Positions 11,129 to 46,034 of a stretch of 64,000 nt of DNA are shown here, in pieces. Numbering within the stretch: position 1 is the stretch's first letter; the number at the start of each line of letters is the position of its first letter. Source of the stretch: a virus (Duplodnaviria > Caudoviricetes); the IMG/VR virus record IMGVR_UViG_3300042282_000085, one strand, 5' to 3'. The notes beneath the pieces are model-generated. The model was not told where the DNA came from, made no database searches, and was given only the letters and a program-made list of their open reading frames with translations. The position numbers were made by a program, and so were the translations under genes.

Positions 11129-12796
11129 TTAAATGTCGTTTTCGATAGACAGTGGCGTAATCCCCACTACCTTTTCACGGCCGTTCGCAATAACCAACCA
11201 GACGATGTTCAGTGGCCACGCACGGTCCCATTCGCGGTCCACTCCCAAGCGGAACGTTTGATTCCAGTCGTCTACGGAGTAAGTGCCAATTTCCCAGTCA
11301 CCTTTGTCCCCACCATTCTCTAAACGGAAATGGGTTGGCGTGGGGGCGGCATCCAGTAGCTGTGGGTCGTAAATTGGATCCATACTACTATAGAGCACAG
11401 ATAGCCAATCGTAGACCACCACCTGGTTACAGCTAATGTTGAACGGCTTCTCATCCAGTGAACTGGCCACCGCGTAGACATCATGTCCAAACTGCGTATA
11501 CCCGTCCCCCAGATAGTCAATGATCCAGTTATCCACCTCAGTGGCGTTGGGCGGGTTCAGAGTCAGCGTCACCTGTTGTGTATGGATGTGCCCAGGGTAT
11601 GCGCCCGGCATTACAGCATCCAAGTCCAGTGTAAGGTTAAGGATCTGTGTAATGCCAAATGAGAGTCCGTTAAAATCCCAACCGTTACTTTGTTTGACCG
11701 TAACGTGTTCGGTCACATCTAGGTTCAGTGTATATTCCACGTCCGTTAACCGCACACGCAGTTCGTATTGGGTTCCAGTCCAATACGGAATAACGTACAG
11801 TTTAAACGCAAAACTCTGGCTGGTAGGTACGTTCGCCAGTTTATAGGTTTTACTGATCGAGGGCGTAGGTGTGCCCGACAGGTTAATCGATTGTTCCTGT
11901 GCACTCGGATAGTAGGTTAACACTACGTGGGTTGTAGGCCCTAACAAACTGGTGTTAAAGTTACTTAACCCATGGAGCTTTACCCGCACCCCGTCAATCG
12001 CATGGTCCTGGTAGTTCCCATCGCTATAGTGAACACGACAGGTCAACATGGACGTGTTAAAGGGTACGTTAAGTTGATTCTCAATCAGTAGCGGGTCATG
12101 GTCAGAGAGCAGGTGGGAAATAAGCTCTACGTCCTCTACATAGACGTTAGAGGCAGTAGGACCTGCAATCATGTTTGCATTGCGTACAATGAAACTATGC
12201 TCCCCACAGGCTCGACCTGCGGCATTGTAGATAATCGCGGTGACAATCTCACCGTCCTGTAGATCCTGGCTGGTATGGCAACGGGCTGGGCGTTTGAGCG
12301 TAGCGTTACCCTGAAACAAAGGTACAAGGTCTACAGACTCTGAAATAACCGCACCCCGACTGTCAACGGATTGAGAGATAACCGTGCCCTCTGGCGAGGT
12401 ATCGGTACCCAGATAGAGTTTCATCTGAGTCGCTTCACTACCGTATACCCGATACCGACTATCAATGGACAGGGTAAAGGGTTTGGTCATCTTATCAATA
12501 AAGATGCGGGTTGCAATATGGGGCTGGTAAAGTTTAAGCCCTTCGTGCAGGTTATCGGGATCTTTGATTTCATTCTCAAACCGAGCGGCCGGGTTAAAGG
12601 GTACCAGGGTAGGAATTGCGGTTACCGCATCCACCGCATCCACTCGATAGAAAAGGTCAAACCCGTCAAATACAATGTCCCCTACGTTAGGGACATATAG
12701 CGTATCGGACGTGTCAATGTTTTCACCCGTATACACCTCTCGCAAGGTCCATACGCGAAACCCTCGTTCAGGGTCCCGTCTGTATACAACTGACAT
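11129..12796 (-). CDS. Virion structural protein (phiKZ gp26-like)
   Basis: Position between terminase and sheath; N-terminal RDP...W...EVYTG...YVPNVGD. Confidence 0.75.
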   Translation of the reverse strand: MSVVYRRDPERGFRVWTLREVYTGENIDTSDTLYVPNVGDIVFDGFDLFYRVDAVDAVTAIPTLVPFNPAARFENEIKDPDNLHEGLKLYQPHIATRIFIDKMTKPFTLSIDSRYRVYGSEATQMKLYLGTDTSPEGTVISQSVDSRGAVISESVDLVPLFQGNATLKRPARCHTSQDLQDGEIVTAIIYNAAGRACGEHSFIVRNANMIAGPTASNVYVEDVELISHLLSDHDPLLIENQLNVPFNTSMLTCRVHYSDGNYQDHAIDGVRVKLHGLSNFNTSLLGPTTHVVLTYYPSAQEQSINLSGTPTPSISKTYKLANVPTSQSFAFKLYVIPYWTGTQYELRVRLTDVEYTLNLDVTEHVTVKQSNGWDFNGLSFGITQILNLTLDLDAVMPGAYPGHIHTQQVTLTLNPPNATEVDNWIIDYLGDGYTQFGHDVYAVASSLDEKPFNISCNQVVVYDWLSVLYSSMDPIYDPQLLDAAPTPTHFRLENGGDKGDWEIGTYSVDDWNQTFRLGVDREWDRAWPLNIVWLVIANGREKVVGITPLSIENDI

Positions 12797-28775: not shown

Positions 28776-29883
28776 TTATTTACGATACACGTCCACTACA
28801 TGTCGGTTCAGTGCCCGTAACGCTTTGTTCGTGGTCCCTACAATGGTGCAGCTATAGAGTATGCGGTTTGCTACGCTCTGATACCCAAAGATTGCGTCTA
28901 ACGGCTCACCCGAGGCGGTCTCATTACGTCCCTCCATGACACGACCTACGATGGTTTTCAGCGCGTTATCGAATACCGCTTTATCCCCTACCGCTGCGGT
29001 AATGTCATGGTCCATGTAGAACGTAATGGCCAAGGTATTAGGCGTTAGCTTCTGACCCCCGACAAAGGTAGGCTCGTTTACTTCACCGGTTGCAGCCGGT
29101 AAGCTCCCTTTATAGCTAACCTCTCGCTTACGCTGACGTGTATCCGCCTTCACAATCTCAGCTAAACTCGGATGCATGTCGTCAGGGTTTCCAAAATACA
29201 CCACCTCACGACGCGTCACCTTACCAACAAACCCGGCCTTAGGTGTTTGGTTTGCAAGTTTAGACAGTCCTAGCAGTGCATCGTCCCCTTGACTGAGTGT
29301 GGCTAACTCAGCCTCCTCGATCACACACAGCGGTACGTCTAGGTCAACCTCTTCTCCGACACCCACAATGTTAGAGACAGCCTGATCGAAACGCACCAAT
29401 ACCGTCTTCATTTTACTGATAGGTGTGGACAGACGTTGTGAAAGTGCAGGGGAAATTGCACACCCATCCTCCAAGGTATCCGCATTCTCCATAAAGGCTA
29501 CCTTCGCCATTACCCCACCCTTCATCGAGACTCCGTTTGGATTTAACCGGTCCCGTTGGAAGTAATGTGTATTCCACGTAACCGCGTACCCTTCTGCTAC
29601 ACTATCCCCTTCCTGTAAGTCCGTTACAATATCATGAGGTAGGACAGCACCCGCGGCTTTACCGTGTCGGATACCCAAGGGCAGGGTAACCGTCTCGCCG
29701 TCCTCATATTGAACCGTTATAGAGTCACGACTCACCTTACTGACCTTACCAGGTTTACTGGCAATATACGCAAAGTTATCCCCACAACGATCAGCAATGA
29801 CCTGCTCATACCCGGTGCGCACAGGCGTAAGCGTGGCATCTTTCGCCGATACCATAGACGATTGCTGTACTGATCCCAAGTTT
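28776..29883 (-). CDS. vRNAP beta subunit (gp178-like), exon 2
   Basis: Beta motifs VRTGYE, EDGCAIS, VGDK, LDAIF; joins exon 1 in frame as DPKRV|NLGSVQQS (1330 aa spliced). Confidence 0.88.
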
Positions 29884-31496
29884 CCTTCTGTCCACTACAG
29901 TCGCGACTCTGTAGCCGGTGTGCTCAGACACCCGCCCTGGGCTTTCCCCAGGGAGCAGACTATATCTTCGCCCTTACTCTTAAGGACGGACGCCGTTTGG
30001 AGCCACCACTGACTTGTGGCCCTACACCGAAGCAACTCGGTTAGTCGTTGAACTCATCCCTTAGCCATAGCCTTAGGGACTTCGCTGCGTCGGTTACCCC
30101 ACACGTTAACCTTTTTACCGTATCGAAGTGGTTAGCTTCGCCCCCATGGGGTGTAATATACACCGGTCACTGTTTCCAGCATGGGTTGGTAGTTAACGCT
30201 CAAAGGGCTTTCCCGCAATTAGACGTCGTACCCAGTACCTTCTGTTACTGGGGCGCACTAAAGTTCTTTAAAGTAATATCCGTAATATTCCACATTTGGA
30301 TGCTTAAGCCCACGACGTACATCATTGTAACTGATGCCTAGCTCCCTAACACAGTCACCCATACACGCAAAGTATCTCTGCTTCCCAGTATCCACGGCAG
30401 TCACCAGAAATGGTCGACCTCGCATCCGCTTAGCCCAATCTACGAAGGGGTCGTCTACAGTGCGCCATGGGTTAGGGTCAGACTTTCGTTTAACCAGAGC
30501 GTAGCGGTCACCAAGTTTAAAAACTGGCTGCTTGTCACCTTTGGATAAGTGTGTTGTCATCGTACCAGAAGTCACCTCTAACGCCTCAGCGGCGGCATTC
30601 TGACTCGAGTACTCCACTACTTCACCCGTGCATAGCCATTTTACTAGCACTTCATTGCCATGGTATACCGGATGTTCGCCTCTACTCACTGCAAGCTTAA
30701 CCTCACCGACTTTAGCTTTCCGCCAACTCTCCCTCTCATAAATGCCGAGGTGTGCAGAGACGTCTACCCATCCAACAAATTCACGCTCTCGCCTGAACTG
30801 AAGGCCATCTTTAAATAAAAGCTCTAGTGGCGCAGCTAAGCGTTGCTGGATGGTGAAAACAGAAAGACCTGTTGCAGCGGCAGCGTCAACGACTTTATTG
30901 AACCGCCCCTCTTCACCTGTTCTTAGGTTTCTCCAGAGTACAGCCGTTGTAGGCTTCTTACCTAAGTCGGCAACCTCAACAAGGGTACCGTTGTGGTTCC
31001 AAGGGTTCGTTTTTCTGACACCTCTAGCCATTGTACTGGGGTGAATGCCAATCGCTTTGGACGCTGAGACTCTAGTGGGGTATATCTTTACAGTGCCGTC
31101 GGGGAACGTTACCTTTGTTTCCTGGCCATGGGGAGTTAAACCGGTGTCAATGGCATGTTGTCGGTTCTCAGATCCACTACACCATTCTAAATTTGTGTAG
31201 TGGTTATTTGACTTCACGCCATCAATGTGGTTAACTTGTGTCTTGGTAGTAGGATCAGGATTGTCCACAAATGCCAGCGCGACTAATTTGTGAACTTTAA
31301 TCCCCGAAACTGACTCGTATCCACGTGACGTTACTGGGGTTCTAAACTTTCCCCTAGCCACGTCGTAGACCCTGCCATCCGGATAAATGCGGAAATTTGG
31401 ATATTCTTTTAAGACTTTAAATTCGGTTTCCATTGTCCATGACTCATGTTGTTAATACATACCATACACAGTCATAGTGACAATTTAACCTATCGT
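29884..31496 (-). mobile_element. Group I intron (1613 nt) in vRNAP beta, HNH gene in L1
   Basis: P AATTGCGGGAAAG, Q CCGACGCAGCG, R GTTCAACGACTA, S AAGATATAGTC; P7.1/P7.2 and P9 hairpins; IGS GUGCGC (30258-30253) pairs exon GCGCGU with U.G; terminal G. Confidence 0.92.
30258..31433 (-). CDS. Intron-encoded HNH homing endonuclease with NUMOD1-like repeats
   Basis: HKLVALAF...VNHIDGVKSNNHYTNLEW; four F/Y-x-S-x-x-x-A-A-type repeats. Confidence 0.9.
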   Translation of the reverse strand: METEFKVLKEYPNFRIYPDGRVYDVARGKFRTPVTSRGYESVSGIKVHKLVALAFVDNPDPTTKTQVNHIDGVKSNNHYTNLEWCSGSENRQHAIDTGLTPHGQETKVTFPDGTVKIYPTRVSASKAIGIHPSTMARGVRKTNPWNHNGTLVEVADLGKKPTTAVLWRNLRTGEEGRFNKVVDAAAATGLSVFTIQQRLAAPLELLFKDGLQFRREREFVGWVDVSAHLGIYERESWRKAKVGEVKLAVSRGEHPVYHGNEVLVKWLCTGEVVEYSSQNAAAEALEVTSGTMTTHLSKGDKQPVFKLGDRYALVKRKSDPNPWRTVDDPFVDWAKRMRGRPFLVTAVDTGKQRYFACMGDCVRELGISYNDVRRGLKHPNVEYYGYYFKEL

Positions 31497-34381
31497 ACGC
31501 GCTTTGGGTCCATTAGGTCCGAACCTGGACCTAGTAAACCAGTTGTAGAGATCAGACTACTGGTACCATCTTTATCAAAATCAAAGCGATCGGTTGTTCC
31601 CCTTAGTGAGTTAACCTTCGCATTGGGGGTCATGTAGGTACGGATTGCAACCTTCGCACTGTCTGGTGTTGTTTCAGAGATAGTTCCCATGTCGTTCGGA
31701 TGGAAGATACGGGTACGCTTCACCATGGTCTTTGCAGATCGACCACCCTGGCCAGTGTAGGTGACACTCTCCTTTTCCTTTAGGTTATGGATCGGGTTAG
31801 ACTCTTCAACCAACATGGTTGCTGGGTCTTTGAGAATATCGTCCCACACGGCATTCGGACGTAAGGAGACCTGTGCGCTGCCAGGGTGACCGGCAGCGCG
31901 CTGTTCCCGTACCGCTTGTACGAGTTGGTTATATACAAAACCTGAGAAACGCTCATACCCACGAATGCGCATTTGAGAACTGTCCATTTCCTCGGTATGT
32001 TCATCGGTGGTTAGCAGCTCAGCGGCCCGTAGAATAAGGGGGATGAATTCGGTTGGCTCCCCCATCTCAGTAAGCAACTCTAAGGTAATGGGGTCAATGA
32101 ACATATCCAACATGAGGTCAAGCTCACGTAGAATGTGACGACCAATCCCCATAGACGCTAGGACCTCGCCGTAGACACCCTTGCGGTTAAAGTCCGACGC
32201 AGGTAGGGTACTGGTGATCCCTTTTACCGCCCGTAGACCACTGAGTACCATGGCACCCTGAGCATGACGGGTATCGATAATCAGCGACTCATCTTGGAAT
32301 CGAATACGTTCTTCGTAGGGCTCCATCGCAGGACGGGTAGTTTTATCAATCCAACGATGGGGGATCTTCAGTGCAGCGATTACCTTATCCAGCCCCATGA
32401 GGTAGCCTAAGGCCAAAGCAACAGGTACCGCTTTACCGTAGACATTAATATCCGCAAACTCGATAGGTCCGTCTCCCCATGCAGGATTAACGACAGCGAC
32501 AAGCGAGCCTATAGACTCTATAGCGGTATCGGTAACGAGATGGAGAATTCCATCCATGGACATGGCGAGCATGGCCTTTCTACGGTTTGTAGGTTGACCA
32601 CAGGGGGTTAGGTTAGCCTGTACCGCTTTAACCGTAAGGGTCTCCCCATAGACCTCAACCCAATCACCCACCGTAAATCGAAAACGGTAGTCTCCACTGG
32701 TAAACTCGGCGACTTCGCGGGCGACGGCTGTAAAGGGGCGTGGAAGGCGTTCTTGTGGAAGGGGCTTAGTGGTATAAACGATGTCGGTTACGGTTGTGTC
32801 GTTTACATCCATGGCCGCTTTGGTAATCTTACTGAGCAGCCAGCGACTGTAGTTGTTAACCGCTTTGGGATTACGGGTTACGAAGATTTTACCGAAGTAC
32901 GAGGCCAGGGATACTTTATCTGGGGCGACCTTTCGAATGGGTAGGTCAAACTTCTGGTGGTCCAGTTTGTACTGTACACCCGCAACCGTATAAATACCCT
33001 CTTCATTTACAACTGGCAATTTAAAGGTAAGCTTAGATGGCTTACCGGCGATCGGTACTAAATCTACGGTATAGACCTTATAGTGGTTAAGGGCATCGCT
33101 GCGCTCCTCAATCGCATAGTCTTTAACCAGAACGCCGGCGTTCTGAATCGAGACCACGGCAGCTGCGACATCTGCCTCTAATAGCTCTTGGACATAGCGG
33201 CGATCAAAGTCCTTTAGCGTAGAACGCAACATGGACTTATCCAGGACAGCGGGGCGTTCAGGTAAGTTCTCTTTACGGGAATCTATTTTAACAGCTTCGG
33301 GTTTAGAGGTAATCAGGTTTTCCAATGTACCCTCACCCACTGGATTGGGCAATGACTTGTATCGAACAGCCAGTTCACTTAAACGACGCTGCTCAGCGGC
33401 ACTGAGCATGCCATTACTACCCAGCCCTTCAACCTGACGGTTAACGTGGTCTTCCCCGATAACCTCAACACTACCTGGATACAGTCCTGAGGTCACCTCT
33501 AGAATGGATTCAGCAGGCGACTCATCCGCTTCCAGTACCTCTTCTTCAGACAGTTCCCGCTCGGGTACACTCTCTGCGGTATCCGTAACCGTACGGGTTT
33601 CCAATATACGGGCTAATGAAGAAAGCAGGTATTTGCGAACTTCTTTAGGTGACTCCAATCCCCAAGTTAGAAAGTCATTGATGTGTAAGAAAGAGACCTT
33701 ACCCGATTCAATCCAGGCAACCATAACGTCATGGTTAAGGGCATGTAGTGGATGTTCAGGGTCCTCTACGGCCAACCAGAGTTCACGGATGAAGAGACGA
33801 CTCAGGTCCATCCATCTTTCGTGTCGGGAGATCGGAATAGGGTTCGGCAACTGATTGAGTTCGGACAGAGTAGGTACCATCTCAGGCAGCGCCAGGGGTA
33901 CAATGTGTACGGTTTCTTCAGTACCGACTGACAGCTGTGCATAGAGGGTCGAGAGTCGGTTGCTGAGCTTATCCATCTCAACCGTACGGCTGACGGGGTA
34001 AAGGTATTGACCCTCAACCAGTGAATAATCAAAGGCGACTGCGGCTTTCATGTAACTTAGACTGCGATCTAAATCCCGACTGCGTGTAATCGGCGCCTGT
34101 GCCTGTTTAAAATATTGCCGTTTACTGGCTTCCAGCGGCACTGCCTTCTTACGGGGATTACCCGCTGTGGCTACCAGGTCCTCTACGTGATGTACAAAGA
34201 CCCGTCCAGTACCTACAATCAATGGATGGGTAGATGGAATCCCCGTCTCAGGCCCATCGATAAAGTGTAGAACACTGTGATAGGGCAGTGCGATGGTATT
34301 TGTATCGGCGATGGTGGGCGACATGAGCTGGGTGACTGTACGGGCACATAGGCTCCGTTTAAACTCGATATACCGAACCAT
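31497..34381 (-). CDS. vRNAP beta subunit (gp178-like), exon 1
   Basis: RIRGYER, NPIHNLKEKE, GQGGRS, GTISETTPDSAKV; ends DPKRV. Confidence 0.9.
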
Positions 34382-34390
34382 AGTAACTCC

Positions 34391-34552
34391 TTACTTAAAT
34401 CCAGTGAAGCTACGCAATACGCGTTCAATGGTTTCTATGTTTGATCCGTTCGCTAAAGACCCAGAGGCATCGACGTAGTTCTCAACTGAGTTAAGCTTAG
34501 CGTCAATTTCAGCCACCGCATCCTCTGCAAACACAAAATGTGTGGAAACTCT
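34391..34552 (-). CDS. vRNAP beta' (gp180-like), exon 2 (53 aa; not in ORF track)
   Basis: RVSTHFVFAEDAVAEIDAKLNSVENYVDASGSLANGSNIETIERVLRSFTGFK*, in frame after GADYDGD (542 aa spliced). Confidence 0.85.
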   Translation of the reverse strand, partial: RVSTHFVFAEDAVAEIDAKLNSVENYVDASGSLANGSNIETIERVLRSFTGFK

Positions 34553-36252
34553 CGTTTCATTCAGTTTGGACGCTACGCCAAACCCGCACCCTTACGTGCC
34601 GCCCTAGGCTTTCCCTAGGATACTAGACCATATCTTCACCCTCCGTTGTCTAGAGGGGTCACCTATTTCGATTTAAGGGATATACCCGCCCGCTTGGGCC
34701 CTACTCCGCGCTACCGGATGGTCGTTGAACGTTCTTCCTAGCTTGCTTCACAGCAATCCGTAGAAGCTTCGCTGCTGATTGCCCATTCTTTATCGGGTTA
34801 GGCTTACGATCACCATACCGAATCCTGTCTATTTTCTCTAGCTTTCGCTCGCACTCACATTTGACCTTTCGGTCTATGTTGTTGCTAGACAGGCTTTAGG
34901 GGTTCCCAGCAATTAAGGTGAGATCAGACTGAGCGTTACCGCCCAGCTGGACAATAGTTATAGTTTATATGTTACAGTATAAGGACCAAATTCTACACGA
35001 CCCAACTCGTTTAGCTCTTTGGTTATCCTAGCCCTAGCCGTGGTATTTAGATAATTACACGCCGCGCGCATAGAGCCTTTAAATACAACCGACTCATCAT
35101 TACGATTTGAAACCACAACCTGTTTAACAGATGGGCATTTTTCGACATTTAGATCGGTTATTGGGACTAGGCTAAAAATAAAGCCATTTATAGGTTTTGG
35201 CTTGGATCTTCTGGTTGCCCGCATTATTGACTTTGTTGGTGCGGCGGTGTCCGCACTAGCGTCCGCGACTGTAGGCCACTTATACGGAACGTTTGACTCC
35301 AAATGCACGCCGTACACGGATCCGTCGCCTTGGTCAACCCCATCAATCCAAAATCTATAACCGTCATACACCTTACCCTTGCCCTGGTTTATCCGCCAAC
35401 GGACAGTCTCGCCACTGTATAGACCTAGGTACTCTGCACACCGGTGCATGCTAGGAAATCTCAATTGCTCTCCAGTGACTACGTTCTCTATGACTATCTG
35501 CTTAGCTTGCACCCTTAGACCTTTATCTGTAGCATGTCTACAGTTTTCTGACCTGGTACAGAATTCTAAGTTCGAAAGGTTGTCGTTACCGGGTACGCCG
35601 TCTATGTGGTTTACGTCTAACTTGTCCACGTTATCGGGGTAATTAAGAAAGGTATACGCTAGTGCTCGATGGCGTTTAACCCTAGTACTGCCACCGTCAC
35701 CTGCTAGGACGCAGCACCAATAGCCGCCAGTGGTATTTCGCCATTTATTAGCCAGCTGCATGTCCTGGACCCATTTAATGGGTCGTCCGGTAATACTGTT
35801 TAACAGGTCACCGTCCTTATTTATAACGTATCGGGTAACCATAGGTACGTGGTAAAATCCTGGAAACCTTTTAGACTCGATAGGTCCATCTTTAAACCTA
35901 TATCCTAGGTTACTCGGGTGTAGATTGCCGTTATCACCAATTGTGCTAAAGGGCACAATTGCAGGTATAACGTCATCTACTGGACGTTTAAAAGCCAGAA
36001 TAACGAGTTTTGCCACAAGTGTCTCTGATGTCCCGTAACCTAAATCAATATCGACAATAGAGTTACCCGAGCCATCTAGTCGTTTATCTAGCTTAGTCCC
36101 GTTCGCATCTAGAACCAAACCTTCTTTATTCACATATACACGGTTATTGTTGGGCCCGCGTACTTCTACAAAACCTTCTATGTCCTTATACTTGTAAAAC
36201 ATATTACACCATATTGTAGTTTACTTATACAATATGATGGTTATAACTTTTT
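34553..36252 (-). mobile_element. Group I intron (1700 nt) inserted directly after the catalytic DYDGD motif, HNH gene in L1
   Basis: P AATTGCTGGGAA, Q AATCAGCAG, R GTTCAACGACCA, S AAGATATGGTC; P7 GACCA/TGGTC versus GACTA/TAGTC in the other intron; terminal G. Confidence 0.92.
34958..36202 (-). CDS. Intron-encoded HNH homing endonuclease (degenerate plus intact HNH, NUMOD1-like repeats)
   Basis: HRALAYTF...VNHIDGVPGNDNLSNLEFCT; FPSMHRCAEYLG. Confidence 0.9.
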   Translation of the reverse strand: MFYKYKDIEGFVEVRGPNNNRVYVNKEGLVLDANGTKLDKRLDGSGNSIVDIDLGYGTSETLVAKLVILAFKRPVDDVIPAIVPFSTIGDNGNLHPSNLGYRFKDGPIESKRFPGFYHVPMVTRYVINKDGDLLNSITGRPIKWVQDMQLANKWRNTTGGYWCCVLAGDGGSTRVKRHRALAYTFLNYPDNVDKLDVNHIDGVPGNDNLSNLEFCTRSENCRHATDKGLRVQAKQIVIENVVTGEQLRFPSMHRCAEYLGLYSGETVRWRINQGKGKVYDGYRFWIDGVDQGDGSVYGVHLESNVPYKWPTVADASADTAAPTKSIMRATRRSKPKPINGFIFSLVPITDLNVEKCPSVKQVVVSNRNDESVVFKGSMRAACNYLNTTARARITKELNELGRVEFGPYTVTYKL

Positions 36253-37719
36253 ATCGCCATCGTAGTCAGCCCCAAGGCCGACTAACGCAAATGGACTTAC
36301 GATCGTAGTTGAGATAAACTCGCTTTTACCGACAGTGTTTGGAAACTCAGGGTACACCTGTCCTTCTGATTCCAACTCCCAACTTTCATTATAAGTGTGT
36401 AGAATGTGTGAGGTTACGGTAGAGCGCAAGTACACCGTAGAGGGATACGTAGAACCCTGACCTGTAACTGGGTATCGGGTAATGTAGCAGCGCACGCGAT
36501 GTACGTACTGCTGGGCCTCAATGTAGAAATACTCCGCCCAGGTTAGAGGACGTACTGTAGAGGCATCCTTATCCTCGGGTAACTCAGCGATTGAGTCCAA
36601 TAGCTTGAAGCCTTTCTCATCCTGATAGACGAGTTTAAGGTAATGGTCGCTTACCATAATGGGTCGATGACGGCGTTCGACCTCACTGAAGGCTTTAATT
36701 AGCTTAGCTCGACCGGCCTCTGTAGCCCAACTCACACGCTCCGACTCATCTAACTTCACCCGGTGAGAGGTAAGGGTTTTAGGGTCAATGAGGTAGGGCT
36801 CATAATCGGCCTCTGCAATCAGGTTCCGTGCAATGCCATTAGGCATTTGAAAGCCGGTCATAACCGGTTCGGTGCCTTTAATGAACTGATAGATTCCCAC
36901 CTGTGTCGTCGTCAGGTCAAAGCTACGCGGTCCGTCCAAATCTGAACCCGCTGGATCCATAGCCGAAATTACGTTGGCTGTAGCAAAGGCAACTCGACGA
37001 GATCCCCATTTAGACTGTAGGAAGCCCTGTTTACCACCTAACATCCCCATGATAATCGTCCAAATCTGCTGAACGGAGGATTGGATAGACCAGCGCGTCG
37101 CATTGAGCACGGGGTCGTTCTTAAAGGCGAGGGCTTCTGAAATTCCGTTGGTAGCGGCAATCACCTTACGGTAGAGTTTATTGATCTCCTGCTCAACCGG
37201 ACGATCTTGCTCATCAATGTCCAGATCCCGAAGGCCTGCAGGCATGACGATTAAAAAGTTAAGGACAGACCTGTCTCTGTACTTATTAATGAGGTCAATG
37301 ACGATATCACGACGATAGGACTTCGTGCGGGGAATCTCGATCTCTTTAAAGTGCTTCATGAAGAAGGCATAGCCAGTTTCACCTTCGAGTACGTCTGACC
37401 GTACGAAGTCTTTTAGCTCAGCGTCCCAGATCGCATAGGCACGGCCTTGCATAATGTCTTTATACAGGCTCTTTAACCGGGTGATGTCTTCAAAGACCTT
37501 AGGGTGGAGAACTTGAGTCCGTAAGTTAATATACCCATGGCGGGTCATACGGCTATCACTACCGACAGGGCCAAAGATTAGATCAGAGTAGAGTCCTGTA
37601 GGATGGAACTCTCGACCCTGCACAAACATCTCTAATGACTTAACGGGTAAGAGACCCGCAATGCGTTGGAGACGATTTTCTAGCAGGGCAATGTTGAAAG
37701 GTTTACTTCTATTGGACAT
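36253..37719 (-). CDS. vRNAP beta' subunit (gp180-like), exon 1
   Basis: GLYSDLIFG, MPAGLRD, GKQGF, TRYP, GADYDGD. Confidence 0.92.
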
Positions 37720-37832: not shown

Positions 37833-40800
37833 ATGGCCAAGTATGACGATGATGTTGATTTTGACATCGATGCCTTGGACGATCTCGATGTACCTGACAT
37901 CGACATAATGCCAGACGACAGTGCGGCAGCAGATAACCGCACGCCCGCCACGCGTGTGGCGGACGGGGCACTCAAATCAGTATTACGTACCAGTACAGCC
38001 CGTACCGCAGCCCGTGCAATTAAAGAGAATGCACTGCCGGAAGGCTATAGCATGGCCATTGATGCCGCGGATGACGCGCTGTCCTTAGGCCAGGATCTAT
38101 ATGATGCGGCAGCCAAAGAACTTGAGCCTGCGGTCAAAGCGGCTCAGAAAATGCTCCGTAAAAGCCAGGAAAAGGCGGATAAATATCTACCTAAATGGCT
38201 GGCGGATACGGTTAAGAAGCTGGGTGGTGAGGCCGAAGAGGCGAGGCAGTACGTAGACCCCAATGAGTCTGCGATAGCCGGTAGCCTGGGCTCTATCTTT
38301 GATAAGTACCGTGAAGCGACTGCCCAGACAGCCGCAACAGAGGCTAACCTGACACTGGAAGATAAGCAGCGTTCTGTTGACCGTAAAATTGCGATTGAGC
38401 AGGGCGACCGTCAGTACAATCAGCTTACCTCTATCAGTGAAGGTATCAGTAAACTGGTAGGGTATCAAGAATCGGTACTCTTTGACTACCAACGTAAGAG
38501 TCTGGAACTGCAGCACCGTCAGTATTTCGCAGCCCGTGACCTGTTAACGGTTACAAAAGCGATGGCGGATCAGAACTTACACGAACTCAAAGCGGTGGTT
38601 AAGAACACCGGTCTACCCGAGGCGGTTAAGTTACGGCTCTCCGAGCAATACGGTCAGGTTGCGACCAATCAGCTCATTGGTCGGGTGCAAGGCAGTGTGC
38701 ATGACTTTGTTGCGAACTACACCTCTGAGTTTCGAGAACGTGCCTTCAAGAAGATTACAGGCGCAGCCCGTGATCTTAAAGATGGTGTCCTCATGGGTGC
38801 CGACATGTACGAACAGATGTCGGAGATGGGTGAGACCATGGATGAGGCAGGTATTGACCGTGCCCGGATGGCTGGCGAGCAGTTAGGTGCCATGGGTACG
38901 TCCGCAGCCTTTAAATATGGTGCTAGGTTAGCGGGTGACCGTCTCGTTACACGCAATAAGTACCAGGAGCGTAGTCGTCTAATAAAACTACTGGATCCCG
39001 ATAACCGACTCTCTTCTCGTGCGGCTAAAGCACTAGAGGCCCGCATTCAGCAATATGAGGCTTCCGGTGAGCCTTTGGATCTACAGGCTTTGACGGATAA
39101 AGAGAGTTATGAGGATAAGCGGGTCGGTGAAGAGATTGCGGAAACGATCAGCACCAGTTCAGGTCTCTTCGGTGGACGCAAACGTAAAATCAATGCGCAG
39201 TTTAAACGCGTACTGAATGCCAGTGAAACGGTAGAGCGTGGTCGCTTCCTACGGGGCGCTGACACCATGCAGTACTTGATAGAGAATGCCCCTAAGGTGG
39301 CAAACGACTGGGCCCGTTCGGGGCGCAGTGTATTCGATAACGTGGAGGTAGAGAATGAAACCCTACAGCGATTACTGGAATCTGGCGGCGTACAAGCCGT
39401 GGAAGACTTCATACGAGAACTGGCGCCTACGTTCAAGGAGTCCTTCAGCGTTAATTCAAACCTGCATGCTGATGCAGCTAATGCCGTTGGCTTTGATCTG
39501 CTTACCCGTCGTTCAATCATTGAGATTATACCAGGCTATCTCTCCCGTATCCTCCAACAAGTAACAACAGTTGCCACAGGGGAATCAGCGGAGCGGATTA
39601 CCTACTCAACTGAACGGGAACAGTTTGTCAGTCAATCGACTCAGGATAACATTGTTGCCAGCCGACTATTTGATCAGCGCAATGTAGATAACCGGTTAAA
39701 TGATGCAGATGCTGTTACGAAGTTGTTAGGGGGTGAAAACCTTGACGATGACGTTAAGGCCGCGCTGAATAGAAGAATCCTCCAGTTAAGGGATGATGGT
39801 AGTACACTCTCACTGAACAATTTGCGTAAAACTTCAGTGGCCGGTGAGGATGAAGGACTAACCGCAGCATTGGAAACGTTCTTAGACTCGGAGGATATTA
39901 ACTTCGACTCTGAGAATAAGATCAAGCTCTCCAGACTTTATGACCGTATTACCGCGATGACACGGGACGTTAACCAAGGACTGGCGGATACAAACAAGGT
40001 TGCGGATAAGGAGACGCTGTACCGCTTGGGTATAGTAGATCCCAAAACCGGTAAGGTTAATGCGGAGAAGGTTAGAGCCTACATCGACGGAAGACTTAGA
40101 CCAGGGGAAGGGGGAGAGGGGCCTGCACCGTCAGCCGACCCCAGTCCATTACCTGCACCAGGTCCAGATACAGCGCCTATAGTGGGTGACACGCTCACGC
40201 ACGAGTATTTGGATCTTATCCTAGACGCTATTACTAGCGGTAATAGTGGCACGCTAACGGCGATAGAGGGCATTCAGTTTGATGCAGCCGACATCGGTAC
40301 CCACGAGCGGTTAGATACAATAGCCAGTACACTCTCAGAGGGCTTTGAGGGTACCTATGGTAGGTTAGACGCTATTACTAATAAGGCGGGCGAGACCGGT
40401 ACCTTTAGTAACACGGTTAACTACAACACCACTAGTACAGTGAATTGGGATGACTTCACGCCACAGCGTAAATTGTTGGTGGAAGAATTGTTCAGTCAGT
40501 TCACCACGCTGACCTCAACCTATGACGGTATACCTATCGCTGTAGATTTGCGCTCTGAGGCACCCCAGGGTACATTGGACGCCTCACCTACTCATGAGCG
40601 TTTAGACGCCATCTTAGACGCCATCAATGGCAATTTTGAAACCAACCATGTACTCTTACAGGCCGTTGCTGAAAATGCAGGTCGTGGGGGTGAGGGTGGC
40701 GACACTGTATCGGTGGAAGAGATGGGGTCTGGGTTACTGGGCAAACTGCGCTCTGGTGCAGGTAGCTTAGTAGGGATGCTGGGTAGCTACTACAGTTGGT

Positions 40801-43800
40801 TAGGTCGTACGTCTTTGAAGACCGTCCAGACGGCTAAAGATGTTGCTTTGGACGTGGGGAATCGGGTACTGAAGCGTACAGGTGCAACCGGTGTACGGGA
40901 TATCTACGTTAAAGGGAAGCCGGGCGTTGTTATCTCCGCAAAAGGACTGCGTAACGGCTGGTACTTCGATGCTGAAACCAAAGCCCCCATCGCTACTATG
41001 GAGGACATTCAGGGCCCCGTGGTAGATCTGGATGGCAATTTTGTACTCACCCAGGAAGACTATGACTTAGGGATTGAGGACCGCTTCGGCAATACCTTAA
41101 TAGAAGCCGGTAAGGGATTGATGCGGGGACTGGGTAGCATTTACGGCGCACAGTTTGCACTTATGGGCGCTGTACTAAAGGCACCCATGGCTGTAGTGCA
41201 GAAGGTGAAGGATCGCTTCGACGGGGTTAAAGATGTCTATGTAAAGGGTGAAGGCACACCGCGTATGCGTGCACTGCTCATGCGCAATGGCGGCTACATC
41301 TCCAGTCGGAGTCAGAAAGTCATCACACACCAAGGGCAAATTGACGGCGAAGTCTTAGACTCTAAGGGGAACATCGTTATTTCCTTGGACGATATTGAGA
41401 CGGGACTCGTTGACCGGTGGGGCATTAGCATTGAGGCTAAGGGACTCAGTGGGTTACTGGGTGGCCTGGCGGGGCGTGGCCTTGAACTAGGCGGTAAATT
41501 GCTAGGGAAAGGCGCTAAGCTGTACGGTCAATACCTGAAGGGTGTCGGCAAAGCTACCGCCGGTATAGCGGGTGGTATCTGGGGTGTTGCTAAGGAAGGC
41601 GGTCGACGCCTAGCCGGTGGCGGTGGCATGTCGCGTGAAGAGATGATGGCGATGTTTCGGGAGATGCAAGGGGGCGGTGCCCCTGAGCTGGACCCCAGTG
41701 AACGTGAAACCTTGTCACTCTGGCAGAAGCTGAAGGATCAGAACCTTACCCCTGATATGTTAAAGTCCATGGATTTGGATGAACTTAAAGCCCGCATACC
41801 CGATCTAAACATGGATGCGTTAAACGTAGGATCCATGGAAGAGCTCACGGCTAAACTCTCTGAGGTAGGGGAGTCTGTCCGACAGGCACTGACCGGTAAC
41901 CAGATGGACATTGGTAGTCGTAAACTACTGCCGGTGTTGATTGAACAGTTAAACGTTCAACAGGGTATCTACCGCCATCTGACGGGCGAGAGTTGGTCTA
42001 GTTCCGGTACTGACATTATCCGAGACAGCTATGACGACATTCTCGCTAACGATGATAATGTTAGTGGTTTGAAGGATACAGTTGCTAAAGTCACCGATAA
42101 CTTCGCCCGTGAAGTCGGTAAGGAAGACGACGAAGAAGGTCACCGTGCAGGGAGCTGGCGAGATCAGCGATCTCAGTTAACCCCTGAAGAAGTCAAGGTT
42201 AAGGAAGAGGAAAAGAAAGAAGAGAAGGAAGAAAAGAACTCTTGGCTTATGGACATCATTGGTTCGCTCGGTGGACTGTTCATGAGCGGCATTGGTGCGC
42301 TGGGTGATAAACTCATGATAGCGATGGGCATTAAGTCCGCCGCCAGTACAGCCGGTGACGTACTGGACGGTGTAGATGCCTTAGGTAACGCCAGAGGTAC
42401 GCCTCCGGGGGGTAGGAAACCAGGTTTACTTGGTAAGTCTTGGAACCTACTAAAACGAGGGGCTAAGGGTGCAGGTGGGCTGCTTAAACGCGGTGCACTT
42501 GCGGCTGCGCCATTACTAGCGTCGTCTAAGGTGGGTGCTGCCGTACTCGCAGGTGGAGCTAAGCTTGCATCTGGTGCCGCTGCGATTGGCGGTGCCATTG
42601 CGGCAGCGCCTGTAGGATTGATTATTGGAGGTGCAGTCGCGGTAGGCGCTGCAGCCTATGGTGGGTATAAACTCTGGAGCCATTTCAGGGACAATGCCTC
42701 ACTAGAACCATTGGAAGCCTTGCGCTTCATGCAGTACGGCATTGACACAACTGATCAAGAGTTCATCGCACATGTCCGTCGTATTGAGCGTGAGTTCATT
42801 GACGACATCAGCTGGGAAGGGATGCGGGCTACCTTTAAAGGTGACCAAGTTGAATATTTCCATGAGTTCGGTGAAGACATGGGGATGGACCTCAACAACA
42901 TGAATGATGCTACGGAGTGGCAGACTTGGTTTGTGAAACGCTTTGGTCCTATACTCTTAACACACCTGACCGTCTTGAAAAAGATTGATGAGGATGTGGA
43001 TGTCACGGATGTAGACGATGAGTTGGACCCTAAGTACCATGCGGACTATATTAAGCGTGTTCAGATTACCGCTGACGATGTCGCCAATGGCTTCAATCCG
43101 TACGAGTGGGTAGCCTCACCCTTTAAAGGCCATGAAGTACGCAACATGGTTGAGGAGATCTCAGAGTACACCGAGGTGCTACTGAAGGCGGCTGAAGCGG
43201 GTAACGTGGAAGACGTGGAGGTTGACTCTAAAGGTACCTTCAGTACCTTAGTTGAAGGAGCTAAGAAAGTCTACGGTGCCGTTGCTAAGGTAGTACCTGG
43301 TGTTGCGTTGATGGGTAGGGTCGCCAGCGGTGTCCATAGTGCGGTCAGTACGGTTGCTGATACGGTACGTGAGAAAGGCGTACTCGGTGCCGCTAAGGCA
43401 GGTATTACTGCGGTGGCGGGATCCATACCGTTCATTGGGGGTTTCTTTAAAAAGGATGAAGAAGAGGAAACTCAAACTAGCGGTAAACTGGCACCAAATG
43501 CTAAGTGGACATTGTTGCGGATGATGATGTACGGTCTGGGTAAGGATGCCAACCCGGAGGCGATTAAAGCCGTTATGGCGTTGGAGCGTAAGTTAGGGAA
43601 AGACACTGCGTCTATACGCAGCAGTGGCGAGTTGAAGGTTGATCGGTTTAAGCTCTATAAGGAAGTCGCAGCGAGCTTTAACCGTGACCCGAAGGACCGG
43701 AATAGTCAGCTAGTATGGATACAGTGGTTAACCGATCGATTTGCCCCCGCCTTCACCCGTTATATCCATTCTCTACATGCCGCCACAGGTGATGATCGTC

Positions 43801-46034
43801 TACTGGACTCGGATGCACGTCTGGATGAGATGGACGGTGAAACCCGTGCGCTCTTCTTGAAGCGCGTGAAGATGGAACAGATACCACCAGGGCTCCATAC
43901 CCATCCCTATGAGGTCATGAATAGTCCCTATGGGGGCGAGAAATCCATCGCTAGCAAAGAAGACATCTACGCGTACATTGAGTTACTCGCCAAAGCTGAA
44001 GAGGTGGAAACCCCTGAGGTGGCTGGTGCCAGTGGTGAGATGAAGCGTGGTCTTCTGGCCAGTATCTGGGGCAAGGTAGCGGAAAAGGCTGAGGGAATAA
44101 AGGCAGGCGTCAGTGCCGCGATTGAGACTGTCCGTGAGAAGGGGGTTGTGGGTGCACTGGGAGATGCACTAACCAAAGCAGCGCCTGCAATCGCGAAGGC
44201 GATACCGGGTGCCGGTGCGGTTATGTACTTAGGTGGCAAAGCAGTAGAAGCCTTGCGTAAGGATACGGAGGTGGAGCCTATTGAGGGACTGAGGCTCTTG
44301 CAGTACGGTGTAAACCTCAAGGACCGTACCTTTGTAAAACGGGTGCGTGAGTTGGAGTTACTTGCACTGGATGCGGTCACCTGGGTAGGCAAGCGTGCAG
44401 AGATAACGGAAGATCCCGAGTATTTCTTTAAGCAGATGGCCGAGTCGATGGGACTGTCCTTTACCAATGAGGCGAATGCCAAAGCCTGGACCACGTGGTT
44501 TGCTAAACGCTTTACTCCGGTACTCCTTACACACCTCCAAACCCTTAAACTGCTGGATGAGATTCTGGAGCTTGAGGAGATCGATAAGCGCATGTCCGTA
44601 GAGATGAAAATTGAATATGTAAACCGTGTTCAATTCACTGCGAATGACATTGCGTCTGGGAAGGACCCCTATGCGATCACGGATAGCCCCATGTACGGTG
44701 TAGTCGTAGAGTCGCTCAGGGAAGTGATTGCCGTGTATACGAAACGTCTGCTGGATACATTAGCGACGGGTCGGATCAACAACAATCAGTCCTTCATGCC
44801 ACCTGAGGTGAAGGCGAACGATAAAGCTACAGAGGCCATTTCGCAGGCGAAGGAAACGCAACAGGCTATTAGCAAACAGCGCAGTGAGGAGGCTAAGTCC
44901 AAGGCGGGTAACAACAGTCCAGTGGAAACCGCCAATGGCATGGGCCGCTCAGAGATGGGTAGTGCCTCTAATGGCGATGCACCGGATGCGGATGGCAATA
45001 TGCCTGCAGGTGTACCGGATGCACCCAGTAACATGAAACCATCTGGAGATGGCAGCATGCTCATGCCTGCACAGGGACGTATTAGCTCTGCGTACGGTCG
45101 CCGCATGCATCCAACTCGAAAGGAGATGCACGGTCATGGGGGGATCGACATTGCTGCACCTACTGGTACGCCGGTGTACGCGGCAATGGATGGCACTATC
45201 TCTCGTCAGTACCGCAGCAGTAGTTACGGCAACGTTATCTACATTAACCACCCTGATGGTCGCGCTACGCGCTACGCTCACTTGAGTCGGTTTGCGGCAG
45301 GGACAGGGGCTGGCGCTGTTGTGAAGCAGGGCCAGATAATTGGGTATGTAGGGTCAACGGGTGTCTCTACCGGTCCTCACTTGCACTTTGAGGTGAGAGA
45401 AGGCCATGCACAGCGCTCACCCACGGCGGATCCAATGAAGTTTATTGGTCCGGCACGGGAAATGCTGGCTCAGCAAGAGAAGGAGGTCAAGGAAGCTGAG
45501 AAGGGTGATGATATTGGGGATCAAGACTTCTCCTTGGAGGGCGTTGATACCATCGCATCGACTACCCTGAAGAAGCCTGTATTGGCGGACGCAGGTATCT
45601 CCGACGATGACCCCAGTGTTAATGCAACGGCTAACAACGACCCTGTAGCGAGCGCATTGCCTGTTAGTCCTAAGGTAGGGCCCAGTGGAGTAGACGGTAC
45701 CCTAACGGCTCAGACAGGCGGTACGGCTAACCTGCCGGATGTAGGGGCAGGCGCTGCCGGTGTGGACGTGGAGCGTTTAGTTGGCGAGCAAACGAAGCAT
45801 GCCTCTGAAGCACAACGTCTACGTGAACGTCAGGTCATGACCCAAGAAGAAACCAATGCGAAGATGGACCGACTCATTGCCGCTATTGAAAACCAGCAAC
45901 CTCCTCAGGTGAACGTATCTGCAGGAGAACCCAGTCAGCCTAAAGGCACTAAACCTAATACGCCTGTTGGACGGCGTAAAGGGGATTCCCAAGGATCGGG
46001 ATATAACGGTGTCGTTGGATTTGACTATTCATAA
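37833..46034 (+). CDS. Tape-measure-like tail protein (phiKZ gp181 position) with C-terminal M23 peptidase
   Basis: 2733 aa; YQRKSLELQ, NTGLPE, IIPGYL, DIYVKG repeats; HGGID...YAHL...GPHLHFE at ~45060-45440. Confidence 0.88.
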   Translation: MAKYDDDVDFDIDALDDLDVPDIDIMPDDSAAADNRTPATRVADGALKSVLRTSTARTAARAIKENALPEGYSMAIDAADDALSLGQDLYDAAAKELEPAVKAAQKMLRKSQEKADKYLPKWLADTVKKLGGEAEEARQYVDPNESAIAGSLGSIFDKYREATAQTAATEANLTLEDKQRSVDRKIAIEQGDRQYNQLTSISEGISKLVGYQESVLFDYQRKSLELQHRQYFAARDLLTVTKAMADQNLHELKAVVKNTGLPEAVKLRLSEQYGQVATNQLIGRVQGSVHDFVANYTSEFRERAFKKITGAARDLKDGVLMGADMYEQMSEMGETMDEAGIDRARMAGEQLGAMGTSAAFKYGARLAGDRLVTRNKYQERSRLIKLLDPDNRLSSRAAKALEARIQQYEASGEPLDLQALTDKESYEDKRVGEEIAETISTSSGLFGGRKRKINAQFKRVLNASETVERGRFLRGADTMQYLIENAPKVANDWARSGRSVFDNVEVENETLQRLLESGGVQAVEDFIRELAPTFKESFSVNSNLHADAANAVGFDLLTRRSIIEIIPGYLSRILQQVTTVATGESAERITYSTEREQFVSQSTQDNIVASRLFDQRNVDNRLNDADAVTKLLGGENLDDDVKAALNRRILQLRDDGSTLSLNNLRKTSVAGEDEGLTAALETFLDSEDINFDSENKIKLSRLYDRITAMTRDVNQGLADTNKVADKETLYRLGIVDPKTGKVNAEKVRAYIDGRLRPGEGGEGPAPSADPSPLPAPGPDTAPIVGDTLTHEYLDLILDAITSGNSGTLTAIEGIQFDAADIGTHERLDTIASTLSEGFEGTYGRLDAITNKAGETGTFSNTVNYNTTSTVNWDDFTPQRKLLVEELFSQFTTLTSTYDGIPIAVDLRSEAPQGTLDASPTHERLDAILDAINGNFETNHVLLQAVAENAGRGGEGGDTVSVEEMGSGLLGKLRSGAGSLVGMLGSYYSWLGRTSLKTVQTAKDVALDVGNRVLKRTGATGVRDIYVKGKPGVVISAKGLRNGWYFDAETKAPIATMEDIQGPVVDLDGNFVLTQEDYDLGIEDRFGNTLIEAGKGLMRGLGSIYGAQFALMGAVLKAPMAVVQKVKDRFDGVKDVYVKGEGTPRMRALLMRNGGYISSRSQKVITHQGQIDGEVLDSKGNIVISLDDIETGLVDRWGISIEAKGLSGLLGGLAGRGLELGGKLLGKGAKLYGQYLKGVGKATAGIAGGIWGVAKEGGRRLAGGGGMSREEMMAMFREMQGGGAPELDPSERETLSLWQKLKDQNLTPDMLKSMDLDELKARIPDLNMDALNVGSMEELTAKLSEVGESVRQALTGNQMDIGSRKLLPVLIEQLNVQQGIYRHLTGESWSSSGTDIIRDSYDDILANDDNVSGLKDTVAKVTDNFAREVGKEDDEEGHRAGSWRDQRSQLTPEEVKVKEEEKKEEKEEKNSWLMDIIGSLGGLFMSGIGALGDKLMIAMGIKSAASTAGDVLDGVDALGNARGTPPGGRKPGLLGKSWNLLKRGAKGAGGLLKRGALAAAPLLASSKVGAAVLAGGAKLASGAAAIGGAIAAAPVGLIIGGAVAVGAAAYGGYKLWSHFRDNASLEPLEALRFMQYGIDTTDQEFIAHVRRIEREFIDDISWEGMRATFKGDQVEYFHEFGEDMGMDLNNMNDATEWQTWFVKRFGPILLTHLTVLKKIDEDVDVTDVDDELDPKYHADYIKRVQITADDVANGFNPYEWVASPFKGHEVRNMVEEISEYTEVLLKAAEAGNVEDVEVDSKGTFSTLVEGAKKVYGAVAKVVPGVALMGRVASGVHSAVSTVADTVREKGVLGAAKAGITAVAGSIPFIGGFFKKDEEEETQTSGKLAPNAKWTLLRMMMYGLGKDANPEAIKAVMALERKLGKDTASIRSSGELKVDRFKLYKEVAASFNRDPKDRNSQLVWIQWLTDRFAPAFTRYIHSLHAATGDDRLLDSDARLDEMDGETRALFLKRVKMEQIPPGLHTHPYEVMNSPYGGEKSIASKEDIYAYIELLAKAEEVETPEVAGASGEMKRGLLASIWGKVAEKAEGIKAGVSAAIETVREKGVVGALGDALTKAAPAIAKAIPGAGAVMYLGGKAVEALRKDTEVEPIEGLRLLQYGVNLKDRTFVKRVRELELLALDAVTWVGKRAEITEDPEYFFKQMAESMGLSFTNEANAKAWTTWFAKRFTPVLLTHLQTLKLLDEILELEEIDKRMSVEMKIEYVNRVQFTANDIASGKDPYAITDSPMYGVVVESLREVIAVYTKRLLDTLATGRINNNQSFMPPEVKANDKATEAISQAKETQQAISKQRSEEAKSKAGNNSPVETANGMGRSEMGSASNGDAPDADGNMPAGVPDAPSNMKPSGDGSMLMPAQGRISSAYGRRMHPTRKEMHGHGGIDIAAPTGTPVYAAMDGTISRQYRSSSYGNVIYINHPDGRATRYAHLSRFAAGTGAGAVVKQGQIIGYVGSTGVSTGPHLHFEVREGHAQRSPTADPMKFIGPAREMLAQQEKEVKEAEKGDDIGDQDFSLEGVDTIASTTLKKPVLADAGISDDDPSVNATANNDPVASALPVSPKVGPSGVDGTLTAQTGGTANLPDVGAGAAGVDVERLVGEQTKHASEAQRLRERQVMTQEETNAKMDRLIAAIENQQPPQVNVSAGEPSQPKGTKPNTPVGRRKGDSQGSGYNGVVGFDYS

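Follow-up and report, generated by a model that had tools for sequence, protein, structure and literature searches.

Two HNH-encoding group I introns interrupt the virion RNA polymerase genes of a phiKZ-like jumbo phage

The virion RNA polymerase (vRNAP) beta'-beta operon of a phiKZ-like jumbo phage, located on the minus strand (37719-28776) of a 64,000-nucleotide (nt) stretch of the IMG/VR record IMGVR_UViG_3300042282_000085 (hereafter the window), very probably carries two mobile, IA-like group I introns with I-HmuI-like HNH genes, whose splicing would restore the polymerase subunits and whose HNH proteins would act in homing. Judged from the sequence comparisons described here, the identity of the introns, their junctions, the integrity of both nuclease genes and a recent lateral spread of the beta intron are established. 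Two related IMG/VR contigs, L010 (IMGVR_UViG_3300031933_000228) and L011 (IMGVR_UViG_3300042255_000023), were used for comparison; their beta' proteins are 97% and 96% identical, respectively, to that of the window in amino acids (aa). Both genes form a single minus-strand operon in which beta' comes first, and their exons and introns are arranged as follows (window positions).

36253-37719, minus strand: beta' exon 1 (phiKZ gp180-like), 489 codons, with GADYDGD as its last motif; ends ...GGC GAU.
34553-36252, minus strand: 1700-nt group I intron interrupting beta' immediately 3′ of the third Asp codon in DYDGD; ends ...GAAACG.
34391-34552, minus strand: beta' exon 2, 53 codons plus stop, RVSTHFVFAEDAV...FK-stop; 98% identical to L011 in nucleotides.
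31497-34381, minus strand: beta exon 1 (phiKZ gp178-like), 961 codons plus 2 nt; ends ...AAG CGC GU.
29884-31496, minus strand: 1613-nt group I intron interrupting beta within the conserved DD-x-KR...Q-Q block, 3′ of DPKRV; ends ...GAAGG.
28776-29883, minus strand: beta exon 2, 1 nt plus 368 codons plus stop; starts AAACUUGGG.

If the transcript is read unspliced, the beta' open reading frame (ORF; 37719-36241) terminates at ...GADYDGD-KKL-stop and the beta ORF (34381-31490, 963 aa) at ...MDPKRV-R-stop. An earlier interpretation made from the letters of this DNA (the sequence-only reading) had proposed that removing 29884-31496 and 34553-36252 restores the two genes, and we found that the joined exons do form open frames, of 1330 aa for beta (...MDPKRV/NLGSVQQ..., the slash marking the splice site) and 542 aa for beta' (...GADYDGD/RVSTHF...). 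Each restored protein aligned in a single high-scoring segment pair with its intronless counterpart from Vibrio phage vB_VpaM_sm033, beta over residues 7-1327 (7-1308 in sm033, 33% identity) and beta' over residues 4-542 (9-549 in sm033, 44% identity). Both sites are also uninterrupted in L012, an IMG/VR relative that is 49% identical, where they read GADFDGDRGSTT and NNDPKRINMSSIQ. At the beta junction U31497 precedes the intron and G29884 is its last base; at the beta' junction the corresponding bases are U36253 and G34553. These junctions are preferred because a one-base shift of both splice sites, which would yield the same mRNA, breaks the rule of a U before the intron and a G at its end. 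Directly 3′ of the beta' exon 2 stop come GGAG and then the beta ATG. The exon 2 frame of beta' starts ~400 nt past the 414-aa nuclease ORF of its intron, and beta exon 2 appears as a 367-aa frame to 28776, ~375 nt past the 391-aa nuclease ORF. The last exon of beta' (53 aa) had been described as missing from the ORF list; this is correct for the full exon, but a 47-aa GTG-start fragment of it (34391-34534) is listed. Inteins were also considered and ruled out, with stops lying 2-3 codons past both exon-1 ends and the HNH ORFs having their own starts.

The closest phage matches of the two genes are the orthologues of phiKZ gp178 and gp180 in jumbo phages of Vibrio, Xanthomonas, Burkholderia, Pseudomonas, Erwinia and Serratia (30-44% aa identity), and tblastn comparison of beta' exon 1 with chimallivirus beta' genes gave 36-44% identity. 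A 2733-aa ORF (37833-46034) lies divergent from the operon, and in related records the corresponding place is taken by a large gene whose annotation is hydrolase, chitinase or tail fibre. This orthology and the synteny with phiKZ gp180-gp178 identify the interrupted genes as those of the virion, and not of the non-virion, RNA polymerase. By the same comparisons, the source is a new phiKZ-like (chimallivirus-type) jumbo phage, previously unsequenced; a megablast search of the operon region against 50,697 phage records (INPHARED) returned a 58-nt match only, the phage itself having no DNA-level entry there.

The intron assignments rest on two ribozyme cores.

29935-30285, minus strand: ribozyme core of the beta intron, RF00028 67.2 bits, E 7e-15; P9.1 and P9.2 follow, on to 29884.
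34603-35022, minus strand: ribozyme core of the beta' intron (P2-P9, Rfam alignment), RF00028 61.6 bits, E 3e-13; P9.1 and P9.2 follow, on to 34553.

In a search with RF00028, the Rfam group I intron model (gathering score 50), a search that the sequence-only reading had suggested, both inserts exceeded the gathering score. The two matches span the full model (positions 1-253), are far beyond chance and are the only Rfam matches within the 64-kb window. Conserved P4, P6, P7, P3' and P9 segments were recognized in both alignments, and the R and S elements are GUUCAACGACUA and AAGAUAUAGUC in the beta intron and GUUCAACGACCA and AAGAUAUGGUC in the beta' intron. P7 is formed by GACUA and UAGUC in the beta intron and by GACCA and UGGUC in the beta' intron, a compensatory replacement of U-A by C-G. 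The complete P/Q/R/S cores and compensatory P7 changes reported earlier are borne out. In covariation alignments of three sequences each, which are supportive and not statistical, 30 of the 109 predicted pairs of the beta' intron had changed on both sides with pairing kept, relative to the introns at the same site in L011 and L010, and in the beta intron this applied to 23 of 110 pairs.

Both introns contain inserts with extra hairpins between P7 and P3' and end with P9.1 and P9.2 hairpins before the 3′ end, a layout that would be typical of phage subgroup IA introns. Their overall architecture is also common: ~50-60 nt with a hairpin, an HNH gene of ~400 aa, a guide at or just past the nuclease stop, and P2 to P9.2. 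All in all, model matches and alignments show that both inserts are group I introns. Their splicing is well supported by these data, and each large vRNAP subunit would require one splicing event to reach full length; the earlier proposal that the packaged polymerase needs two splicing events, one per large subunit, is supported by the identity of the introns and by the junctions.

The predicted guides, which would pair with the exon end to form P1, and the hairpins near the nuclease start codons are located as follows.

30253-30258, minus strand: internal guide of the beta intron, GUGCGC, pairing with the exon end GCGCGU over 6 base pairs (bp) with U.G at the splice site; kept in L011.
34950-34955, minus strand: best-placed guide of the beta' intron, AUUGUC, next to the nuclease stop and three bases 5′ of P2, with A opposite the splice-site U.
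31432-31484, minus strand: hairpin spanning the beginning of the nuclease gene in the beta intron and its likely ribosome-binding site, z-score -2.32.
36207-36239, minus strand: 12-bp hairpin just upstream of the beta' nuclease start codon, z-score -2.45; covers GGUG, which may be a ribosome-binding site.

The guide of the beta intron overlaps the nuclease stop UAG and lies directly 5′ of the 7-bp P2 hairpin. A P10 is possible in this intron, where the UUU just upstream of the guide can pair with the AAA that opens exon 2. In the beta' intron, AUUGUC gives six pairs plus a 7-bp extension, at -9.3 kcal/mol, an RNAduplex energy that does not discriminate between candidate guides. When P1 was constrained to a U.G pair at the splice site, only weak 5-bp candidates were obtained for beta', and a U.G option at 35001 falls inside the ORF. 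The hexamer AUUGUC is found at intron positions 6-11 of the ORF-less beta' intron of L011, and AUUGUU stands there in intron B, one of the two introns in the beta' gene of L010 (see below). Because the guide recurs in these two introns, the AUUGUC register of the beta' P1 looks real from the comparison, and its U-A pair appears to be a conserved oddity. In intron A of L010 a hairpin (z-score -3.3) likewise lies upstream of the nuclease start, over the likely ribosome-binding site.

Each intron carries an HNH homing-endonuclease gene (HEG), for which the Pfam HNH_3 cut-off is 24.8 bits.

30258-31433, minus strand: HEG of the beta intron, 391 aa; HNH_3 27.0 bits.
34958-36202, minus strand: HEG of the beta' intron, 414 aa; HNH_3 24.5 bits.

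Both genes are intact and lie 5′ of the ribozyme core, in the part of the intron that follows the 5′ splice site. Residues 4-133 of the beta nuclease aligned with I-HmuI (PDB 1u3e), and the HNH motif is kept as VNHIDG...NLEW...EN (His...Asn...Asn); of the two nucleases, only that of beta gave a weak match, in its C-terminal part, to the NUMOD-like DNA-binding module of I-HmuI. Like the I-HmuI/I-BasI/I-TwoI class, this protein retains the catalytic His and the metal-binding Asn of an HNH domain at its N terminus; the window nucleases differ from that class in being about twice as long as I-HmuI and in residing in an RNA polymerase instead of a DNA polymerase gene. The two nucleases of the window have the HNH core alone in common (33% identity over 94 aa). 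They group, at 22-35% identity, in a family with PhiPA3 gp210, Goslar_00230, the Kodama HNH protein and the HNH protein of a PhiPA3 helicase intron. By BLASTP, gp210 matched the beta' nuclease with E 3e-21 and the beta nuclease with E 2.5e-14, and the beta' nuclease further matched Goslar_00230 (E 4e-23) and the nuclease of L010 intron A (E 3e-28). We rejected the possibility that the beta' nucleases of the window and of L010 are the same (34% identity, different introns, different sites), and among 5.8 billion proteins no relative of the window's beta' nuclease above ~40% identity was found, the nearest being P0001 and P0002. As a separate observation, the PhiPA3 helicase gene gp134/gp131 (HQ630627.1, ~116.5-118.0 kb; L003:5980-7371) is interrupted by a group I intron (83 bits) whose HNH ORF of ~377 aa, unannotated in the record, is the best full-length match to the beta nuclease. 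From these relationships both HNH proteins would be expected to nick specific sites, and by analogy a role of both as competition weapons is plausible.

Comparison with L011 and L010 indicated a recent exchange of introns. The beta intron of L011 (14940-16541) occupies the same site as that of the window and is 94.4% identical in nucleotides, its nuclease being 97.7% identical in aa. Between the window and L011, the synonymous divergence (dS) of the beta nuclease gene was 0.046, with a nonsynonymous-to-synonymous ratio (dN/dS) of 0.22, and that of the flanking polymerase exons was 0.39-0.45, so that the nuclease gene is synonymously ~nine times less diverged than its surroundings. By these estimates the beta nuclease is under purifying selection, and the difference in dS indicates that two lineages came to share the intron and its nuclease well after the divergence of their polymerase genes, that is, a recent lateral spread. 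What this contrast demonstrates, at the level of sequence divergence, is the mobility of the beta intron and not interference. One stretch in the periphery of the beta intron (window 30181-30032, P5 extension) is 67% identical to L011, compared with 96-100% for the rest of the intron, and in L011 this stretch is similar to L010 intron A, suggesting recombination between introns and a mosaic origin.

At the beta' site the picture is more varied. L011 has an ORF-less intron of 416 nt (11468-11883) at exactly the window's site; it is 69% identical to the window core, compared with 91-98% for the exons, a difference which indicates that distinct intron lineages occupy one site in the two genomes. 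In the beta' gene of L010 (11456-13366), two group I introns, both above the Rfam threshold, surround a 12-nt micro-exon, TACGACGGCGAT (YDGD). Intron A, at GAD/, contains a 357-aa HNH gene (RF00028 60.5 bits), and intron B, at YDGD/, is ORF-less (RF00028 68.9 bits) and 96% identical to the L011 beta' intron. The beta' site thereby holds different introns in three close relatives (window, L010 and L011). A metagenome scan for further relatives recovered only the L010 contig again.

Interrupted vRNAP genes have clear precedents in phiKZ, 201phi2-1, Goslar and HHBS8_1, which the sequence-only reading had overlooked. In 2002, introns were predicted in phiKZ at gp56, gp72 and gp179, with the RNA polymerase subunits gp55 and gp180 reported as interrupted; for the vRNAP beta protein gp273/274 of 201phi2-1 an intron was indicated by proteomics, and two spliced reads fit its position. 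In PhiPA3, gp210 is an HNH nicking endonuclease encoded in a group I intron of gp211/gp209 that nicks phiKZ gp178 and confers a measured fitness advantage (Birkholz et al., Science 2024, PMC11620839); its effect on phiKZ depended on gp210 entering the nucleus of the competitor, a compartment that normally excludes it (PMC11620839). The PhiPA3 intron (RF00028 67.8 bits) resembles the beta intron of the window in its gene (the phiKZ gp178 orthologue), in the conserved block that it interrupts and in the order exon 1, nuclease ORF, core, exon 2. It lies at DD/, whereas that of the window lies 12 nt further, at DPKRV/; the nucleases are ~22% identical, and PhiPA3 beta' is uninterrupted, unlike that of the window. 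Goslar (Goslar_00231/00230) is similar to the window in having a beta' intron in the catalytic DxDGD motif with the ORF first (beta' exon 1, an ORF179-like gene, annotated Intron_gpI, 67.7 bits); between its HNH protein and the beta' nuclease of the window, identity is 33% across 176 aa. The phiKZ-like phage OMKO1 has an ORF-less beta' intron (RF00028 88.4 bits), in contrast to the HNH-bearing intron of the window, and KEN51 has no beta' intron. In the EL-like Pseudomonas phage HHBS8_1 (PQ287644.1), as in the window, both vRNAP genes are interrupted and the beta' intron has an HNH gene; its two introns scored 46.2 and 39.3 bits with RF00028 (E 4e-9 and 4e-7), both under the gathering threshold, and its beta intron is ORF-less.

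The insertion points of these introns differ by short distances. In beta, those of PhiPA3, Kodama (RF00028 46.4 bits) and HHBS8_1 are at DD/, the ORF-less intron of BONAISHI (37.9 bits) is at DDG/, and those of the window and L011 are at DPKRV/, 12 nt downstream of DD/. In beta', the introns of OMKO1 and Goslar (phiKZ gp180/gp179-type) are at GAD/FDGD, and those of the window (DYDGD/) and L011 are at D(Y/F)DGD/, again 12 nt downstream; the HHBS8_1 junction is ambiguous, 0-2 codons from the window site, and Aeromonas phage PS1 has a beta' insert apparently at DFDG/D. PS1 carries inserts of ~235 nt and ~390 nt at both polymerase sites (L009 1745-1978 and 5404-5794), without a Rfam match at E<=0.01, and these could be very small or degenerate introns. 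In the GenBank records of BONAISHI, Kodama, HHBS8_1 and OMKO1 the exons of split vRNAP genes are annotated as separate or hypothetical proteins; for the short last exon of beta', the OMKO1 record has no annotation and the HHBS8_1 record a "hypothetical protein". Related phages already provide examples of the double-intron state and of the ORF-first layout. By comparison of the available sequences, what is new in the window and its relatives are insertion sites 12 nt downstream of known ones, divergent nucleases and a natural series of intron states.

Two other ORFs of the window were inspected. ORF 6209-7996, a candidate nuclear-shell protein, had no match among solved structures, and we make no claim of nucleus formation from the window. 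In a 712-aa terminase-like ORF (8889-11027), profiles of the terminase large subunit match only the first ~180-215 residues.

According to the model that we propose, each ribozyme would excise itself after transcription, with guanosine attacking after the last U of the exon and the last G of the intron setting the 3′ site. Splicing would then reconnect codons in two highly conserved segments, the beta block equivalent to Escherichia coli RpoB from D675 onward and the Mg-binding DxDGD of beta', and full-length beta (1330 aa) and the beta' N-terminal subunit (542 aa) would be made and packaged. The HNH proteins would most likely nick intron-free alleles in co-infecting relatives, in which recombinational repair would copy the intron in (homing). 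In relatives too diverged for such repair, the nick could damage the competitor, as with PhiPA3 gp210.

Several observations weigh against this model. Long-read transcriptomics of phiKZ detected no splicing for the predicted gp56, gp72 and gp179 introns. The HNH_3 match of the beta' nuclease is 0.3 bits under the Pfam cut-off. At the 5′ splice site of the beta' intron, the sole well-placed guide makes a U-A pair in place of U.G, a change reported to lower activity in mutagenesis of the Tetrahymena ribozyme. A Shine-Dalgarno-like GAAGGA with a TTG start occurs one codon past the beta junction (window 29879-29892), and beta exon 2 could in principle be translated separately from unspliced RNA. 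This last observation would suit an explanation in which the genes are merely split, their pieces act as separate polypeptides and the ribozymes are relics; chimallivirus RNA polymerase subunits are naturally split into several polypeptides, and GenBank records list such pieces as separate coding sequences. Set against it are cores that match the full Rfam model and whose pairs are kept by compensatory changes, breaks that fall inside a catalytic motif, a beta' exon 2 without a start codon at the junction, intronless relatives that encode these segments contiguously, and the proteomics and spliced reads for gp273/274 of 201phi2-1. We regard this explanation as very improbable.

The U-A pair could also mean that the beta' intron self-splices weakly or not at all, in which case it may need a helper or, by splicing slowly, throttle beta'. 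The guide giving this pair recurs unchanged in L011 and differs by one base in L010 intron B, and no convincing U.G alternative was found. Yet the same conservation in three sequences, of which two count as independent because L011 and L010 intron B are 96% identical, argues for function; the beta' gene is essential, the rest of its intron core is complete and shows covariation, and prediction of P1 from sequence is itself uncertain. A weakly splicing beta' intron consequently seems to us rather unlikely, though clearly less so than relic ribozymes. A further explanation concerns the nucleases and leaves the introns as real: they may be ordinary selfish homing enzymes without measurable competitive benefit, in which case the idea of two weapons would be wrong, and we consider the chances evenly balanced. 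Plain homing fits the insertion at conserved codons, the intact HEG, a dS of the HEG below that of the exons and the ORF-less derivatives in relatives, and the effect of gp210 required entry into the nucleus of phiKZ. On the other side, gp210, of the same family and in the same gene, did give a fitness advantage, and at the beta' site L010 and L011 are unlike the window, so that alleles susceptible to the beta' nuclease perhaps exist.

The model of two spliced, mobile introns has practical and biological consequences. Annotation of both vRNAP genes requires joining across the introns, or else beta' loses its last 53 residues and beta looks like two genes. The two nucleases are new candidate site-specific nicking enzymes aimed at universally conserved RNA polymerase codons. 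As a tentative extension, which we think possible but doubtful, the DxDGD and DD-x-KR stretches (~15 nt) may be contested hot spots at which staggered lineages of introns and nucleases displace one another or stack, the nucleases at +12 having new specificities and the U-A pair being a tolerated, lineage-specific departure. The offsets seen are 0, +9 and +12 in beta' (EL-like ambiguous, +6 to +12) and 0, +3 and +12 in beta. If this extension is true, +12 nucleases could still attack an allele whether or not its 0 site is occupied, and stacking would yield states like that of L010, with two introns flanking the 12-nt YDGD micro-exon. Together with L010 and L011, the window makes up a small natural series of HEG-containing, ORF-less and doubled introns, with an HEG much younger than its host gene, and this series may be used, following the work on PhiPA3 gp210, to study the spread and competition of intron nucleases in phiKZ-like phages.

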